A stretch of DNA of 32,000 bases from Nostoc punctiforme PCC 73102 (GTDB lineage Bacteria; Cyanobacteriota; Cyanobacteriia; Cyanobacteriales; Nostocaceae), in NCBI RefSeq assembly GCF_000020025.1, contig NC_010628.1:870001-902000 (forward strand), given 5' to 3'. The position numbers and the translations under genes are program-made. The notes under the pieces were generated by a model that did not search any database, was not told the DNA's origin, and saw only the letters and a list, made by a program, of their open reading frames with translations. This document shows, one piece after another, positions 8,994 through 17,153 of the stretch. Within the stretch, counting starts at the first letter, position 1; the number at the start of each line of letters is the position of its first letter.

Positions 8994-9064
8994 GGCGGCA
9001 TAGCCAAGTGGTAAGGCAGAGGTCTGCAAAACCTCCACCCCCGGTTCAAATCCGGGTGCCGCCT
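8994..9064 (+). tRNA. tRNA-Cys (anticodon GCA)
   Basis: Cloverleaf folded by hand. Acceptor GGCGGCA/TGCCGCC, D-stem GCC/GGC, anticodon stem GAGGT/ACCTC with loop CTGCAAA, T-stem CCCGG/CCGGG with loop TTCAAAT, and discriminator U. No encoded CCA. Confidence 0.93.
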
Positions 9065-9065
9065 T
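9021..9065 (+). repeat. attL core, covering the tRNA-Cys 3' part from the anticodon stem to discriminator +1
   Basis: GGTCTGCAAAACCTCCACCCCCGGTTCAAATCCGGGTGCCGCCTT is identical to 17109-17153. Flanking bases differ on both sides. Confidence 0.9.
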
Positions 9066-9115
9066 AAGGCTTTCAGCCTTTTAGGACTTCTAGAAACCAA
9101 ATAAAATGCTTTCTT

Positions 9116-9139
9116 GATATTCAAAGTGATATTCAAAGC
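9116..9139 (+). promoter_or_regulatory. Tandem 12-bp repeats GATATTCAAAGT / GATATTCAAAGC, candidate integrase arm-type sites on the attL side
   Basis: Two exact tandem copies start 51 nt inside attL. The same motif recurs next to attR (17021-17044), inverted over the int start (16989-16999), and as AATATTCAAAGT near 11438. Confidence 0.5.
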
Positions 9140-9238
9140 CTTCTGGTTAACCCCAGGAGGTTTTTTATTTGACTAACTTAAGGTACATCGAAATCACCTC
9201 AAGTTGACTTAGTTAAGACATAGGAATAAATATTTTCC

Positions 9239-9385
9239 ATGAAAACCCACAAACTACAAATAAGTCTAAATGATCACATCTATCACAAACTCAAAGAACT
9301 GGCTGAAAGTAATAACATCTCAATGGCTGCCCAATGCAGACTACTTGTCTCTCAAGCAACTACAGAAGACCACAAAAGAACTTAG
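9239..9385 (+). CDS. Ribbon-helix-helix (CopG/Arc-like) protein, 48 aa
   Basis: MKTHKLQISLNDHIYHKLKELAESNNISMAAQCRLLVSQATTEDHKRT shows a beta-strand/helix/helix pattern. TTGACT(9204)-17 nt-TAAATA(9227) lies immediately upstream, so the ATG would sit at or near the transcription start, making the mRNA leaderless-like. It is below the ORF-track cutoff. Confidence 0.5.
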   Translation: MKTHKLQISLNDHIYHKLKELAESNNISMAAQCRLLVSQATTEDHKRT

Positions 9386-9491
9386 CGATCGACAAGTAGA
9401 AATACAGAAGTCCCTTGAGCGCATCGAGTTAGAAGTCTCAGAAAATACCCAAGTTTTAAACTTCATCGCACAGCATTTAATGAATCAATAG
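9270..9491 (+). CDS. Alternative or overlapping 73-aa ORF with a coiled-coil C-terminal half
   Basis: It is +1 relative to the RHH frame and overlaps 9270-9385. Only the part after 9385 (ELSDRQVEIQKSLERIELEVSENTQVLNFIAQHLMNQ) looks protein-like. It could be a separate short gene from TTG near 9345, or the C-terminus of the RHH protein if a frameshift is present. Confidence 0.3.
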   Translation: MITSITNSKNWLKVITSQWLPNADYLSLKQLQKTTKELSDRQVEIQKSLERIELEVSENTQVLNFIAQHLMNQ

Positions 9492-9536
9492 GCTACCGCA
9501 TACTAACCAAAACAAATCAAAAATATTGGAGGTCTT

Positions 9537-10211
9537 ATGGAAAATCAAAATGAGAAACTACTTGCCCAACTGCGGGATGATTTAGCTACTGAACAGGAAA
9601 AATATAATGCTAGGTTAGCTGAAATAAAGGTTAAAGAACAGGCGGCTATGGCGGAAAAGGTCAAGCGCCAACAGAGCCAACAAAGAGTTACTGAAACCTC
9701 CAACTTGTTAATCCAGAAGACCATTGAAAATGCTAACTTAGACCCCAGGCAATACCGCTCGGTCTATGAGAGGACTTTTAACCTTTATGGGCAACAAAAA
9801 GCCCAAGAGTTATTTGTTTCCTCTGTTATCGGTCTGTTGACCCATAAGCATACCGGGGTAGAATCAGCTACCGCTAGATTTGGTAATGGGGGTCTGACAT
9901 GGCAGGCTAAGAGTTTCAATAGTCCCCAAGAGTTGTACAAGGCAGTTCTTAGTAGCCTACATGGGGAAGACGGGGGCGACTTCGACCCATTGGGCGGTCA
10001 TGAATGGTTCGATGTAATCCTTGATAGTCTTTTTGAAGACCCAACCTTTTTACCTGCTGAGTCTGTAATGCCTGAGAGATTTACCAAATATGTTCAAGGG
10101 CTGGTAGCGGTCAATCAGATGTCCAGGACTAACCCTATCGGTCTGCCAGATGCCGATGATTTGACTGTAGATGACATGATTTACCTTCAGAGTTTACTAG
10201 GCGATTACTAA
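9537..10211 (+). CDS. Hypothetical protein with an N-terminal coiled coil (224 aa)
   Basis: ATG is preceded by GGAGG (9528-9532). A terminator-like hairpin follows (AACCCCGGTA..TACTGGGGTT, about 10232-10258). No motif recognised. Confidence 0.6.
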   Translation: MENQNEKLLAQLRDDLATEQEKYNARLAEIKVKEQAAMAEKVKRQQSQQRVTETSNLLIQKTIENANLDPRQYRSVYERTFNLYGQQKAQELFVSSVIGLLTHKHTGVESATARFGNGGLTWQAKSFNSPQELYKAVLSSLHGEDGGDFDPLGGHEWFDVILDSLFEDPTFLPAESVMPERFTKYVQGLVAVNQMSRTNPIGLPDADDLTVDDMIYLQSLLGDY

Positions 10212-14948: not shown

Positions 14949-14959
14949 GTAAACTCCTC

Positions 14960-15000
14960 AGAATCCCCCAGAATCCCCCAGATTACCCCTAGAATCCCTT
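14960..15000 (+). repeat. Four phased 10-bp repeats (AGAATCCCCC, AGAATCCCCC, AGATTACCCC, [T]AGAATCCCTT)
   Basis: The tandem units have roughly one helical turn periodicity and begin 12 nt after the stop of the DUF3486-like gene. Confidence 0.7.
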
Positions 15001-15217
15001 AGAGATACAAATGCCTCTATGGGATTTTTAATGTTCCTGTAGCCCCTTGTAGCCCTGCGATCGCTATTAGTGATGTTTTATCACTAACCTATACTACTTG
15101 ACTAAATGAATACAAGCATTACTTTTGCATAACACCAAAGACCAATGCAAAACCCTATGAGTAGTTACCAGCTACACATAGGGCGATTAATAAATACTTA
15201 TTTTTTAAATAACTTGT

Positions 15218-15790
15218 ATGTGCATTATAACACATCTAGCGCTCAATGGTGCTAGTAGAAACTCTGATTATTTCCAAGACTCTTGGGAATCCCGGCTAGC
15301 CTGCGGTAACTCATGGGAATATAGCCTAACTGAGTGTCTGAAAACTCAAGGGTTAGACAAGGCTTACCAAGTAGACCATTATATGACCCACAGGGCGGTT
15401 TATGGGAGTTACAAGGCTGACCCGGATAACTGGCGATCGCGGAATCAGTCTAAGCTAGCCCAAGACTTGTACTCAAAGTATCAAAGGGACATCCGAGTTA
15501 TCCACAATGGCAAAGGGTACAACTTAGAGGTCAAGTCCAAATCGGGTATCTTTGAAAACCATAACATACTAGTTGGCGGTATTACAACCAGATGGGCCAG
15601 ATATAGGTTCCCTGTTCACTTCATAGTTGCCATCGATCGCACCACAGGGGAAGCCAGGGTAACTGAGGCGGATAAGCTAACCAGAGAAACCAGTTGGTTA
15701 AGGGTCAAGTCTCAGGAGTTATCCTATGCAGTCCCCAGGCATTTATTCAAACCTCTGGATAGCTGGCTAGATTTTATCAAAGATAGCTAG
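15218..15790 (+). CDS. Hypothetical protein with a PD-(D/E)xK nuclease-like motif
   Basis: QRDIRVIHNGKGYNLEVKSKSG gives D..(13 aa)..E-V-K, preceded by an acidic helix (DSWESRLA). This resembles the Hjc/restriction-endonuclease-fold core. No SD is present, so the start is uncertain. Its stop overlaps the int stop convergently. Confidence 0.45.
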   Translation: MCIITHLALNGASRNSDYFQDSWESRLACGNSWEYSLTECLKTQGLDKAYQVDHYMTHRAVYGSYKADPDNWRSRNQSKLAQDLYSKYQRDIRVIHNGKGYNLEVKSKSGIFENHNILVGGITTRWARYRFPVHFIVAIDRTTGEARVTEADKLTRETSWLRVKSQELSYAVPRHLFKPLDSWLDFIKDS

Positions 15791-16989
15791 AGTTCTGGTA
15801 GATTTAGGGGCACTGTGTTACCTGCATAGTGCTTCAGGATTATCTCAGGGCTGTTACCAACTAACTTGGCTACTGTGGAGACTGTTAACCCTTGTTCTAG
15901 CATCAGGGTAATAAAAGTATGTCGGGTGTTATATGGGCATCGATAGCGCTCGATTTCACCAGCATCTAATAACCCTTGCATAACCCCATTGTAGTTTTTA
16001 TTACTTGTCCTGCCCCCTTTCCAGACCTGTGTAGAGAATCGGGTATTACTGATTATCCCCCCAGTGGGACTAGTGAACACCTGGGATTCTAGATTAATAT
16101 CCTGGGGTCTAATGGATAACAACAGTTCCCTAACTTGGGTATTACAGGGGAACTTCCTAGCCTTACCAGTCTTAGTCCCCTTCCTAATATTTAACTGACT
16201 ATCATAGGACTCACAGAAGTTAATCTGGGTGCATTCAGGGTTGATGTGTTTCCACTGTAGGGCGATCGCTTCACCTGTCCTACAGCCAGTCCAGAATAGG
16301 AACTTTACAAATGGTGCATAGTGCGCTCTAGTAGTCTCAAATGCCTGGATGATGTTATTCATCTCCTGTTTACTAAATGGGTCAATGGCATCTGAGTCAT
16401 GCTTGGGTAGCTTGATATCCTCTGACATCCCAGCAAAAGGATTATCCTTAGCCAGCCCTGACCCCATAGCCCATTTACAACAGGCAGCTAGGTAGGTTAG
16501 TACTCTTTTGGCAGCATTAGGGGACAGTTGGGTTAACAGGTGATCTCTGATTGCGATCGCCTGGGTTAAGTCCTTTGTAGGTAGCCCCTTAATGTGATTA
16601 GTGTACTTTCTGGCATAATCGCGCCGATATGTGGTAGCCGCTAGCTGGGGTTTCATATATGCACAGTATTGCTCCCATAGCTCCATTAGGTCAGTCTGAG
16701 GTGTCCTGGGGCTAACCAGGGTTAACAGAGGTTTCTTGTAGCTCTCTAGTTTTTCTTTGTAGCGCTCTAGTGTCGGGTCTAGTTGCCCTGTGATTATCTC
16801 TTCTTCTATCCAGTTGGCGACTGAATCAACTCGCCGCCGATTAATCTCATTAGCATCTAACCCAGTACTAATGAAGGTTTGTTTACCACCTGGGGTTACT
16901 GACCGAGGTAGCCGGAGCCTTAGCTTACCTCTGAACTCCTCAACCCCAACATTACCCCTGGCTGTCCTAGCTGTCTTGGCTGTACCCAT
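15787..16989 (-). CDS. int: Tyrosine site-specific integrase
   Basis: 400 aa. It has catalytic Arg I in FWTGCRTGEAIALQWKHI, the H-x-x-R box in YNTRHTFITLM, and the catalytic Tyr in ILKHYAG. The N-terminal GKLRLRLP arm-binding-type domain resembles DUF3596-type integrases. Confidence 0.92.
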   Translation of the reverse strand: MGTAKTARTARGNVGVEEFRGKLRLRLPRSVTPGGKQTFISTGLDANEINRRRVDSVANWIEEEIITGQLDPTLERYKEKLESYKKPLLTLVSPRTPQTDLMELWEQYCAYMKPQLAATTYRRDYARKYTNHIKGLPTKDLTQAIAIRDHLLTQLSPNAAKRVLTYLAACCKWAMGSGLAKDNPFAGMSEDIKLPKHDSDAIDPFSKQEMNNIIQAFETTRAHYAPFVKFLFWTGCRTGEAIALQWKHINPECTQINFCESYDSQLNIRKGTKTGKARKFPCNTQVRELLLSIRPQDINLESQVFTSPTGGIISNTRFSTQVWKGGRTSNKNYNGVMQGLLDAGEIERYRCPYNTRHTFITLMLEQGLTVSTVAKLVGNSPEIILKHYAGNTVPLNLPEL

Positions 16990-17044
16990 TGAATATCACT
17001 AACCTCTATCTCCCTATGATGATATTCATTTTGATATTCAAAGT
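16989..17044. promoter_or_regulatory. Cluster of GATATTCA motifs on the attR side, overlapping the int start region
   Basis: GATATTCATTTT (17021-17032) and GATATTCAAAGT (17033-17044) are in tandem. An inverted copy TTGAATATCAC (16989-16999) abuts the int ATG. Confidence 0.5.
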
Positions 17045-17108
17045 CAAGCGATTATTGCTAGATTGTTGACCACATAGGCACTTTTGAAGCCAAAGGGTAT
17101 GCAATACC

Positions 17109-17153
17109 GGTCTGCAAAACCTCCACCCCCGGTTCAAATCCGGGTGCCGCCTT
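17109..17153 (+). repeat. attR core (partial tRNA-Cys 3' copy)
   Basis: It is identical to 9021-9065 and lacks the 5' half of the tRNA. Confidence 0.9.

Follow-up and report, generated by a model that had tools for sequence, protein, structure and literature searches.

The 32,000-nt stretch of DNA analysed in this study, called the window below, is part of the chromosome of Nostoc punctiforme ATCC 29133 and contains a complete tRNA-Cys gene followed by an 8.1-kb element, the ends of which are marked by a perfect 45-bp direct repeat. The following features were assigned (coordinates in the window, strand, description and basis).

8994–9064, plus: intact tRNA-Cys(GCA) (ARAGORN; Rfam tRNA, 66.5 bits)
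9021–9065, plus: attL core, left copy of the 45-bp repeat (exact repeat match)
9066–9082, plus: small hairpin and T-run supplied by the element, directly 3′ of the putatively regenerated tRNA (sequence; fold −9.6 kcal/mol, not significant against shuffled sequences)
9115–9135, plus: two left-arm tandem repeats TGATATTCA with 12-bp spacing, candidate arm-type integrase sites (motif count)
9239–9491, plus: two overlapping ORFs, 9239–9385 (48 aa, RHH-like, sub-threshold) and 9270–9491 (73 aa, +1 frame) (ORF list, profiles)
9537–10211, plus: 224-aa signature protein with an N-terminal coiled-coil-like region and a conserved GVE...GNGGL domain (translation, homologues)
10408–11095, plus: operon-like accessory trio of a 75-aa ORF, a 61-aa NikA-like/TacA-like RHH ORF (10635–10820) and an 89-aa ORF (Pfam)
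11227–11391, plus: predicted 54-aa regulator of the RHH type (CopG/Arc-like), its gene directly preceding that of the helicase (RHH_1, PHROGs)
11517–13097, plus: 526-aa replication protein, VapE/D5-type helicase domain at residues about 209–412 (PF05272, PHROGs)
13114–13148, plus: terminator-like hairpin 3′ of the helicase gene
13149–13500, no strand: predicted origin, an AT-rich block (about 13325–13375) flanked by eight AGATAGRGAACA iterons of both orientations (motif count, sequence)
13577–14098, minus: 173-aa protein whose N-terminus has a single hydrophobic stretch, a membrane anchor or signal (translation)
14206–14436, plus: 76-aa ORF with its stop codon overlapping the start codon of the 170-aa gene, so that translation may be coupled (ORF list)
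14436–14948, plus: 170-aa signature protein, putatively DNA-binding (model, weak profile matches)
14959–15030, plus: four phased 10-bp repeats (YAGAWTMCCY, 14959–14999) running into a terminator hairpin (14991–15028) (sequence, fold)
15153–15183, plus: conserved hairpin upstream of the nuclease gene (fold, covariation)
15218–15790, plus: 190-aa PD-(D/E)xK nuclease with a predicted Hjc-like (Holliday-junction resolvase) fold (model, Foldseek, alignment)
15787–16989, minus: 400-aa tyrosine integrase, transcribed inwards from the attR side (PF00589, phrog_1)
16990–17047, no strand: right-arm repeats TGATATTCA at 17020 and 17032, inverted copy at 16990–16998 (motif count)
17109–17153, plus: attR core, right 45-bp copy, the displaced tRNA-Cys 3′ fragment (exact repeat match)

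Four further Nostoc elements of 7.4–11.7 kb, each delimited by its own direct repeat, were found.

L028: 7.86 kb, at tRNA-Cys, bounded by the identical 45-bp repeat
L026: 8.59 kb, at tRNA-Cys, own direct repeat
L014: 11.7 kb, at tRNA-Thr, own direct repeat
L029: 7.39 kb, at a non-tRNA site, own direct repeat

Integration site and integrase

Both copies of the repeat are identical over 45 bp and enclose 8,043 bp. They begin within the 5′ strand of the anticodon stem and end one nucleotide beyond the discriminator. The full-length tRNA-Cys is located at the left junction and the 3′ fragment at the right one. This arrangement had been described in an earlier note made from the letters alone, and coordinates, sequence and placement were reproduced using ARAGORN, Rfam and exact matching. 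The 3′ part of the tRNA-Cys was presumably regenerated by the element. Directly behind it, the hairpin at 9066–9082, whose sequence is kept in L028 and in the locus L040, may take the place of the native terminator hairpin (17173–17188), which follows the tRNA at the empty site.

The tyrosine integrase adjoining attR, also named in the note, was borne out by matches to Phage_integrase (PF00589; E 1e-13) and phrog_1 (E 6e-47). All six copies of TGATATTCA in the 32-kb window are located inside the element, versus 0.39 expected, and those of the right arm overlap a predicted promoter-like site of the integrase gene (17047 to 17019, minus strand). L028 has a 94.5% identical integrase and the same arm-repeat layout, while L026, with an integrase of 78% identity, carries TGGCTATCA in this layout. 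The arm repeats thus change together with the integrase as a matched module. A recognisable excisionase or AlpA was not found in the element.

As to an empty site in relatives, which the note had proposed to look for, four related Nostoc contigs (L034, L038, L042 and L046) carry a complete tRNA-Cys joined straight to a homologue of the sequence from 17154 onward; the site can therefore be empty. For N. punctiforme, Logan contigs L004–L006 look like an exact empty site, but they do not prove excision: they were assembled at k=31, below the length of the 45-bp core, and the contig of the element breaks off precisely 30 nt inside each copy of the core. The contig patterns of these data also suggest an RNA-seq origin, so that the apparent empty site may be a chimera joined through the core. 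The repeat, the integrase profile matches and the empty sites in relatives agree with the note in supporting a discrete mobile element, inserted at tRNA-Cys by a tyrosine integrase.

Replication module and conserved genes

The VapE-like domain of the 526-aa protein was recognised by PF05272 (E 4.4e-49) and by DNA helicase and primase PHROGs (E 4e-40). A primase domain was not detected in this protein, and its N-terminal 200 aa matched no family. The iteron AGATAGRGAACA occurs in eight copies, all within 13149–13486, compared to 0.41 expected by chance. L014, whose helicase is 76% identical, has the identical iteron and the 80/125-bp spacing. Other replication proteins of the family are accompanied by other iterons, resulting in three distinct initiator–iteron pairs at the same position. 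In IMG/VR, the helicase had no close relative. A VirE/D5-like helicase followed by an iteron and AT-rich block had been proposed, and this assignment, like that of the nuclease described below, survived the profile searches, the iteron count and the fold checks. These data support an element with its own replication initiator and iteron origin. Together with the integrase and a gene set without virion or conjugation genes, they fully support the wording "small replicative integrative element" of the note.

The 170-aa gene is present in five of five delimited elements, and homologues of the 76-aa ORF are located just upstream of it in L028 and L029. Its predicted structure (mean pLDDT 62, about 80 for the N-terminal domain) consists of an N-terminal helix-turn-helix-like bundle and a long helical hairpin. 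Phage_Mu_Gp27 was the sole Pfam family recurring among the homologues, with sub-threshold matches for the window protein (E 0.16) and for 4 of 20 homologues (best E 0.015); hhalign against Mu gp27 was negative. All matches of the fold search were non-significant, with small terminases recurring among the top weak ones, and a significant terminase match was obtained neither by HMM nor by hhalign or fold search. Homologues were absent from 50,697 GenBank phage records and from IMG/VR. Of the "DUF3486-like HTH protein" in the note, the HTH part agrees with the model, while the family assignment stays below threshold; the further claim of a small-terminase-type packaging gene was not established by these searches. 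Judged from the model, the protein is plausibly small-terminase-like or a regulator. The four phased repeats behind its gene, which had been pointed out before, are kept together with their hairpin (−15 kcal/mol, z −3.7) in two relatives, L028 and L029, and are a candidate binding array for the 170-aa protein, as a pac-like site or operator.

The 190-aa gene is among the best-conserved of the family and present in four of five delimited elements. Its homologues form 32 clusters (64–94% identity), the named sources of which are all Nostoc or Scytonema, and none was found in GenBank phages or IMG/VR. One homologue is located on a 553-kb Nostoc plasmid. D91, E104 and K106 do not vary among 22 homologues, and the top PDB matches of the model (pLDDT 72, pTM 0.68) in Foldseek were Hje/Hjc, the phage 15-6 resolvase, fusellovirus D212 and RecU (E 1.3e-3, prob 1.0). 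The protein, noted earlier as PD-(D/E)xK-like, thus models as an Hjc-like junction-resolving nuclease. In the hairpin upstream of its gene (−16.2 kcal/mol, z −4.9), three pairs retain pairing via double changes across six elements. The 224-aa protein had no match in Pfam, PHROGs, NCBIfam, PADLOC or PDB; its gene is also present in four of five delimited elements, with homologues in L028, L026 and L014 and a fragment in L029.

Of three RHH proteins listed in the note, two pass Pfam thresholds, namely the 61-aa ORF (NikA-like, E 4.7e-7, 30.3 bits versus a cut-off of 27) and the 54-aa ORF (RHH_1, 22.8 versus 20.5 bits), whereas the 48-aa ORF remained sub-threshold (E 1e-3). The 54-aa protein also matches Arc-like and CopG-like PHROGs and is 85% identical in L028 and 67% in L029; both of these elements also keep the two overlapping frames of the 48-aa and 73-aa ORFs. 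The trio at 10408–11095 gave no tblastn match in the other elements and is not kept across the family. The 173-aa protein matched no family in Pfam, PHROGs, NCBIfam or PADLOC, and L026 holds a 34%-identical homologue; its hydrophobic segment fits the membrane protein of the note. A master repressor of the Stl/cI type was not found in the element.

A family of related elements

The gene order is repeated in two more loci, L047 (Scytonema) and L049 (an 8,163-nt contig), while L040 has the same attL arm but unrelated HsdM-like cargo. Across the elements, integrase and arm repeats as well as replication protein and iterons are swapped as matched pairs. The three signature genes (170, 190 and 224 aa) are retained despite these swaps, which points to a common, dedicated role besides integration and replication. 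A decayed, immobile prophage or island remnant would explain the lack of structural genes, and excision is a prediction. This reading is nevertheless highly improbable, given perfect 45-bp repeats, intact ORFs throughout, a layout kept in seven loci with different insertion sites, retained int–arm and rep–iteron modules, the conservation of the 190-aa gene and relatives with empty sites.

We regard the element, with a probability of about 0.8, as a complete representative of a hitherto undescribed family of "hitcher" elements, 7.4–11.7 kb long, which integrate into the genomes of heterocyst-forming cyanobacteria (Nostoc, Scytonema), replicate themselves and presumably move between cells via outside machinery. 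As far as can be read from its sequence, the 8.1-kb element is real and probably active in integration and replication. The integrase, guided by the arm-type repeats on both arms, would recombine the 45-bp core, so that integration regenerates the tRNA and excision releases a circle. Anatomy and initiator–iteron co-variation suggest that this circle is copied by the VapE-type helicase at the adjacent origin. The RHH proteins may serve as regulators, and the nuclease, judging by its fold, could resolve branched or multimeric replication products.

Possible routes of transfer

Searches of the element in Pfam, PHROGs, NCBIfam and PADLOC detected no capsid, portal, tail, large terminase, relaxase or coupling protein, in line with the note; defence genes were likewise not matched in four HMM libraries. 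Since virion and conjugation genes are missing, cell-to-cell transfer must use outside machinery, and the element probably travels with a helper, which could be a phage. The most likely route would be packaging of multimers by a helper phage, with the 170-aa protein and the adjoining phased repeats as recognition module; this is the least supported step of the mechanism.

The element resembles PICI-like tycheposons, which occur in cyanobacteria (bioRxiv 10.1101/2020.12.28.424599), and PICMIs, satellites which can be equally minimal and are packaged as concatemers (PMC10803314). If the element were a genuine phage satellite like PICIs, PICMIs or P4, its excision and replication would be induced by a helper cyanophage, and the 170-aa protein, as small terminase, would bind the phased repeats as pac and direct the helper terminase to package multimers of the element. 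Such a status is plausible but tentative, and less likely than not. It agrees with int, regulators, rep and ori, a putative packaging gene and accessory genes within 7–12 kb, with rep–ori modules exchanged as pairs, the weak Mu gp27 and small-terminase similarities, the conserved phased repeats and a junction resolvase suited to debranching DNA before packaging. However, the hallmark of PICI/P4-type elements is a small-terminase-type packaging gene, for which the 170-aa protein has no above-threshold family match, and no gene that defines P4-like elements, classical PICIs, cfPICIs or PLEs was recognised in the element. Capsid-size or interference genes were not recognised, viral contigs yielded no family member, the 170-aa and 190-aa proteins lack homologues in GenBank phages and IMG/VR, and a helper phage is not known. 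The layout behind the PICI/P4-like satellite of the note stands, and the packaging gene is a hypothesis.

Conjugative mobilisation is improbable. Here, an accessory relaxosome protein of the RHH type (NikA/MobA-like), together with an oriT that escaped recognition, would enlist a relaxase and a type IV secretion system supplied in trans by a conjugative plasmid. The 61-aa ORF bears the NCBI name "plasmid mobilization protein", NikA-like RHH ORFs are present in L047 and L049 too, and the plasmid-borne 190-aa homologue would fit. Yet relaxase, coupling protein and secretion genes are missing, the 61-aa ORF scores far under the cut-offs of NCBIfam MobA and MbpA and of RelB, it also matches antitoxin RHH families, and it is not kept in L014, L026, L028 and L029; moreover, RHH folds are generic regulators.

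Passive spread of an integrated plasmid-like replicon or tycheposon-like shuttle by membrane vesicles, natural transformation or generalised transduction, without dedicated hijacking and with the 170-aa protein as regulator or recombination directionality factor, is also less likely than not, with nearly the same probability as the satellite status. The persistence of the signature genes speaks against it, 72,556 plasmid records showed no DNA similarity, and partition or copy-control genes were not recognised in the element. On the other hand, integrase, rep and ori are present with nothing demonstrably phage-derived, viral collections lack the 170-aa family, and L040 combines the same attL arm with other cargo. 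Moreover, tycheposons with VirE-type helicases swap integrase and replication modules and are enriched in vesicles (bioRxiv 10.1101/2020.12.28.424599).

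Borders and gene content of the element

The tRNA-Cys(GCA) gene is the sole tRNA gene that ARAGORN detected in the window, and Rfam agrees. The 45-bp direct repeat reported in the earlier note was recovered by a repeat finder as perfect, and its two copies enclose 8,043 bp. Since the repeat starts within the 5′ strand of the anticodon stem and ends one base beyond the discriminator, the left junction carries the intact tRNA-Cys gene and the right junction a displaced 3′ fragment, exactly as had been read from the sequence. Such a pair is the mark left when a tyrosine recombinase integrates DNA and the crossover falls in the anticodon-loop region. 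Thereby, all three features of an Islander-type tRNA-integrated island are present, namely an intact tRNA gene, a displaced 3′ repeat and an internal tyrosine integrase.

Features of the element and its borders (window coordinates)
8994-9064, tRNA-Cys(GCA) gene
9021-9065, attL, left copy of the 45-bp repeat
9239-9385, 48-aa RHH-like ORF
9270-9491, 73-aa ORF in the +1 frame
9537-10211, plus strand, 224-aa protein
11517-13097, replication protein
13114-13148, terminator-like hairpin
13149-13486, iterons around an AT-rich block
14436-14948, plus strand, 170-aa protein
14959-14999, phased 10-bp repeats
15153-15183, hairpin CCCTATGAGTAGTTACCAGCTACACATAGGG
15218-15790, plus strand, 190-aa nuclease
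15787-16989, minus strand, integrase
17109-17153, attR, right copy of the 45-bp repeat

Housekeeping genes border the element: thrC and cpeT/cpcT to its left, and to its right hisC together with genes for a methyltransferase and a pseudouridine synthase. An exact protein look-up found its proteins deposited as ACC79497-ACC79503 of the Nostoc punctiforme ATCC 29133 / PCC 73102 chromosome. Farther to the left, Rfam matches above the gathering score to NsiR8 (nitrogen-stress-induced RNA 8; 725-898) and to a cyanobacterial heterocyst sRNA (1141-1196) are located upstream of an OprB/SLH porin-like gene.

Searches of Pfam, PHROGs, NCBIfam and PADLOC detected no capsid, portal, tail, large terminase, relaxase or coupling protein in the element, in line with the earlier note, and gave nothing above threshold for the 224-, 75-, 89-, 173-, 76-, 170- and 190-aa ORFs. 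For the 224-aa protein, neither Pfam nor PDB provided a match, the family profile included. No AlpA or Stl-type regulator was found in Pfam, PHROGs or NCBIfam, and the regulators of the element are RHH proteins. Of three such proteins originally proposed, the 61-aa ORF (NikA-like) and the 54-aa ORF (RHH_1) passed the Pfam thresholds, while the 48-aa ORF remained below. PADLOC matched no known defence system in the element, so its reading as a defence island was dropped.

The 48-aa RHH-like ORF and the 73-aa ORF overlap by ~115 nt, and both frames are open and conserved in two related elements (L028 and L029). This could reflect dual coding or a programmed frameshift giving an RHH plus coiled-coil protein.

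Exchangeable integration and replication modules

The integrase matched Phage_integrase (E 1e-13) and phrog_1 (E 6e-47). The 32-kb window contains six copies of the motif TGATATTCA (0.39 expected), none of them outside the element. Tandem pairs lie 50 bp inside attL and ~70 bp inside attR, and an inverted copy overlies the integrase start and its promoter-like site. For the replication protein, the proposed helicase was confirmed as a VapE/D5-type domain (E 4e-49), and phage helicase and primase PHROGs match as well; its first 200 residues gave no match, and no primase domain was detected. A terminator-like hairpin stands between the helicase gene and the iterons. The iterons (AGATAGRGAACA) also held up, as all eight copies, in both orientations, are confined to 13149-13486 around the AT-rich block, with a chance expectation of 0.41.

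Further elements were reached via relatives of the 170-aa, 190-aa and VapE proteins, and four of them are bounded by direct repeats of their own.

Related elements and contigs (host or contig; size; site and repeat; integrase; replication protein, as far as noted)
L028: Nostoc sp. UIC 10890; 7.86 kb; tRNA-Cys, identical 45-bp repeat; integrase 94.5% identical; 295-aa replication protein, not VapE
L026: Nostoc sp. CENA543; 8.59 kb; tRNA-Cys, 46-bp repeat; 359-aa replication protein, not VapE
L029: Nostoc sp.; 7.39 kb; non-tRNA site, 43-bp repeat; VapE, 599 aa
L014: Nostoc sp. DedQUE08; 11.7 kb; tRNA-Thr, 52-bp repeat; two tandem integrases; VapE 76% identical to that of the window
L047: Scytonema hofmannii; VapE, 503 aa
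L049: 8,163-nt contig, whole contig; VapE, 516 aa

The conserved order is att, RHH gene, 224-aa gene, small ORFs, replication gene, origin, a pair of 76-aa and 170-aa genes, repeats, 190-aa gene, integrase gene, att. By tblastn, the 170-aa gene was found in all five delimited elements and the 190-aa and 224-aa genes in four of five each. As judged by its 190-aa marker, the family is widespread in Nostoc (32 protein clusters at 64-94% identity), and clusters with a named source all come from Nostoc or Scytonema. In Nostoc carneum NIES-2107, a homologue of the 190-aa protein (P0095) is encoded by a plasmid of 553 kb, so large plasmids may also receive members of the family. The tandem integrase genes of L014 (6011-8357; 370 and 338 aa) are related to each other, and this element also has extra 443-aa and 302-aa ORFs without family matches.

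Both modules vary together with their sites. L028 has the same arm-repeat layout as the window, and in L026, with an integrase 78% identical, TGGCTATCA replaces TGATATTCA with the layout kept. Three initiator-iteron pairs occupy one and the same position. In the window and L014, VapE-526/520 is paired with AGATAGRGAACA repeats of identical 80/125-bp spacing; L029 combines VapE-599 with AAGGGACTCAG; and in L028 and L026, TGGTATCATACCAGATACCA goes with a 295/359-aa protein whose N-terminus is RHH-like. The 295-aa and 359-aa proteins are 56% identical. Iteron sequence follows initiator type across the five elements. The features of a Rep plus iteron origin, i.e., an initiator beside repeats and an AT-rich region with cognate specificity, are thus reflected in anatomy, enrichment and co-variation. 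The arm repeats and iterons are putative arm sites and origins, and their co-variation with integrase and initiator is the best available evidence that they function as such. From the co-variation of integrase with arm repeats and of initiator with iterons it follows that the family evolves through module exchange, as SaPIs and tycheposons do.

With a probability of roughly 80%, we consider that the element is intact and probably active, integrates and replicates itself, and relies on outside machinery for transfer; as such, it fits the "hitcher" concept (PMC11389934). That it is a dead remnant appears highly improbable. The element is of interest because its host is a tractable model and its modules are cleanly defined. 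N. punctiforme ATCC 29133, whose mobile elements and phages are little known, serves as a model of plant symbiosis and cell differentiation that is open to genetic work, and the pairing of integrase with arm sites and of replication protein with iterons is a clean, testable modularity. If the element excises and replicates, its origin/initiator pairs and tRNA-Cys integration could be developed into vectors compatible with one another and into tools for site-specific integration in Nostocales.

Candidate packaging genes and routes of transfer

The 170-aa protein is the crux of the claim that the element is a phage satellite. Its description as DUF3486/Mu gp27-like was upheld in part: Phage_Mu_Gp27 was the sole recurrent Pfam family, seen with 4 of 20 homologues, and all of these matches stayed below threshold (best E 0.015; E 0.16 for the window protein); an hhalign comparison with Mu gp27 was negative. 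In the predicted structure (pLDDT 62), a bundle of helices at the N-terminus is combined with a long helical hairpin, and distant homologues carry a CxxC...HxxH pattern N-terminally. Foldseek searches of viral and PDB libraries yielded nothing significant; among the top weak matches, small terminases recur (G20c, Moby, PhiW-14 and one DUF3486 protein). A profile search of 1.84 billion representatives resulted in 47 matches at E up to 0.001, ~20 of which are short and look like true homologues. None of ten scanned matches contained a Pfam domain, and the PDB profile search returned no matches.

Four phased 10-bp repeats are located directly 3′ of the 170-aa gene, run into a terminator hairpin and are conserved in L028 and L029. 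Plausibly, they form a binding array, a pac-like site or an operator. The earlier note had suggested a search for this repeat in viral sequences, and it was not found in IMG/VR. For neither the 170-aa nor the 190-aa protein was a relative found in GenBank phages (tblastn) or in IMG/VR, where distant 170-aa homologues also served as queries; the VapE query gave none in IMG/VR, and blastn of the element against a plasmid collection detected no similarity.

The assignment of the 190-aa protein to the PD-(D/E)xK nucleases gained support from the invariant residues D91, E104 and K106, and from an AlphaFold model (pLDDT 72, pTM 0.68) with the alpha-beta-beta-beta-alpha-beta core. Its best PDB fold matches are archaeal Hje/Hjc, the Thermus phage 15-6 resolvase, fusellovirus D212, RecU and SPARDA nuclease domains (best entries 1ob8, 1gef, 2eo0, 7bgs and 2w8m; best E 1.3e-3, probability 1.0, target TM ~0.6). 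It shares the PD-(D/E)xK core and the invariant D-ExK with archaeal Hjc/Hje and viral Holliday-junction resolvases, but is ~60 residues longer than Hjc and merely 10-16% identical to resolvases, with borderline E-values (1e-3). Judged from the model, the protein may act in resolving junctions. About 35 nt 5′ of the nuclease gene, the conserved hairpin CCCTATGAGTAGTTACCAGCTACACATAGGG (folding z-score -4.9) shows double changes preserving three pairs across six elements. Rfam contains no match to this hairpin, which may serve as an operator or an RNA element.

P4 has a genome of ~11.6 kb and resembles the element in being small, located in a tRNA gene, and equipped with a tyrosine integrase and a D5/VirE-family helicase with its own origin, without capsid genes. 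Of the P4 set (psu, delta, sid, epsilon, alpA, alpha and integrase), the element has an integrase and a D5/VapE-type helicase but none of the others, with no homologues of sid, psu, delta, epsilon or cos and no primase domain in the replication protein detected. In SaPIs, the order is int, regulators and replication protein, followed by an iteron and AT-rich origin immediately 3′ of the replication gene. The element shares this order, the variation of origin-specificity pairs within the family and accessory genes near att, but differs from SaPI-type PICIs by having no Stl-type repressor and no recognised terS, cpm or ppi, and, with 8 kb, falls short of the usual PICI size. With respect to the PICI set used by SatelliteFinder, the integrase is present, an AlpA/Stl-type regulator is not, for pri-rep, a VapE/D5-type helicase was found with no primase domain seen in the N-terminal 200 aa, and for the decisive component, a gene for packaging (such as a small terminase) or capsid morphogenesis, the one candidate is the 170-aa protein with its sub-threshold Mu gp27 and non-significant fold matches. 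Own capsid, portal and head-tail connector genes as in cfPICIs are absent, with no structural-gene matches.

Also, the tycheposons of Prochlorococcus, which include a PICI-like subset (Hackl et al., bioRxiv 10.1101/2020.12.28.424599), have, like the element, a cyanobacterial host, a tyrosine recombinase aimed at the 3′ part of tRNA genes, VirE-type helicases among their replication genes, no capsid or conjugation machinery, integrase and replication modules exchanged within the family, and sites that are hotspots. In functional terms, the element agrees with them (tRNA-targeting recombinase, replication module, no capsid or conjugation genes, modular exchange). It differs in its host, a filamentous heterocyst-forming member of the Nostocales instead of marine picocyanobacteria, and from the PICI-like subset in having no recognised terS or major capsid gene and in its 170-, 190- and 224-aa genes, which have no annotated homologues. 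PICMIs of Vibrionaceae integrate beside fis, have a core of Int, AlpA and primase, and are packaged as concatemers, with helper phage and transduction demonstrated (Barcia-Cruz et al. 2024, PMC10803314). Like them, the element is very small and has few genes, among them those for an integrase and a replication protein but none for capsid remodelling; unlike them, it is located in tRNA-Cys and has RHH regulators and no detected AlpA or primase. Concatemer packaging is the only way for an 8-kb element to fill a normal phage head. By analogy, the element might work like PICI-like tycheposons, PICMIs and SaPI-type PICIs.

A satellite is suggested by the architecture, by a minimal size comparable to that of PICMIs (PMC10803314), by the resolvase and by the weak resemblance to terminases, while the absence of phage homologues and of family members from viral collections speaks against it; altogether, we regard this reading as possible but rather doubtful. 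Tentatively, the group might be defined by three proteins without known relatives, namely a Mu-gp27-like HTH packaging-specificity protein acting with the phased repeats as pac site, an Hjc-like resolvase and the 224-aa protein, with freely exchangeable integrase-att and replication-origin modules, and its multimers might be mobilised by a Nostoc phage. Mobilisation by conjugation is improbable, its sole support being the non-conserved NikA-like RHH protein, with no relaxase or secretion genes found. To our knowledge, satellites in cyanobacteria have so far been reported for marine picocyanobacteria only. If the element is a satellite, it would point to unknown helper phages and would extend satellite biology to filamentous cyanobacteria; if not, it is a clear "hitcher" example. 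Passive spread or spread by vesicles, as with cargo tycheposons (bioRxiv 10.1101/2020.12.28.424599), is possible but likewise rather doubtful. Reliance of an intact, self-replicating element on outside machinery remains our preferred reading. The literature search found no description of the element or of satellites in Nostocales, and the resequencing paper PMC5313495 is silent on it.

Occupancy of the tRNA-Cys site

Scanning metagenomes and MAGs with a pattern of the tRNA plus its native terminator gave zero matches, and a pattern limited to the full tRNA-Cys recovered the empty sites. In three of them (L034, L042 and L046), thrC and/or cpeT are present at 92-97% protein identity with a full tRNA-Cys, directly followed by ~150 bp with 86-91% identity to window positions 17155-17306, including the native terminator hairpin. 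A fourth (L038) has the same arrangement, with a flank alignable only as two 44-bp blocks. As these four sites combine a full tRNA-Cys with a homologue of the sequence from 17154 onward, the predicted unoccupied site is borne out across strains. The hisC context of Nostoc favosum (L025) is not syntenic and proved uninformative.

Contigs from N. punctiforme runs (L004-L006) show hisC, tRNA-Cys and cpeT in succession with 100% identical flanks. They were rejected as proof of excision: the Logan assembly uses k=31, shorter than the 45-bp core, and because no 31-mer spans the core, the path from left flank through core to right flank can be a chimera. The element-only contig L015 stops exactly 30 nt inside each core copy, revealing a k=31 assembly. 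Contig ends vary by run (L003, L007, L015 and L018), lying at 17109, 17124, 17138 or 17153, or with L003 covering 9224-17006 only, which fits graph branching at the core combined with RNA-seq coverage. Should these runs indeed be RNA-seq, as the contig patterns suggest, L003 would mean transcription of almost the entire element in culture.

Other inserts were observed at the same tRNA-Cys. A different integrase follows the conserved right flank of ~150 bp, with its GGGGTAA-type repeats, in L034, L042 and L046; this integrase is 43% identical to that of the window in L034 and L046 and only partially matching in L042; L038 has the right flank without an integrase. L040 has a window-type left arm (two TGATATTCA copies) in place of the empty-site flank, but HsdM-like cargo, and a further, different insert is present in L033 and L045. 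Taken together, the tRNA-Cys locus resembles a hotspot of integration, and window positions 17154-17410 may themselves be the remnant of an older element.
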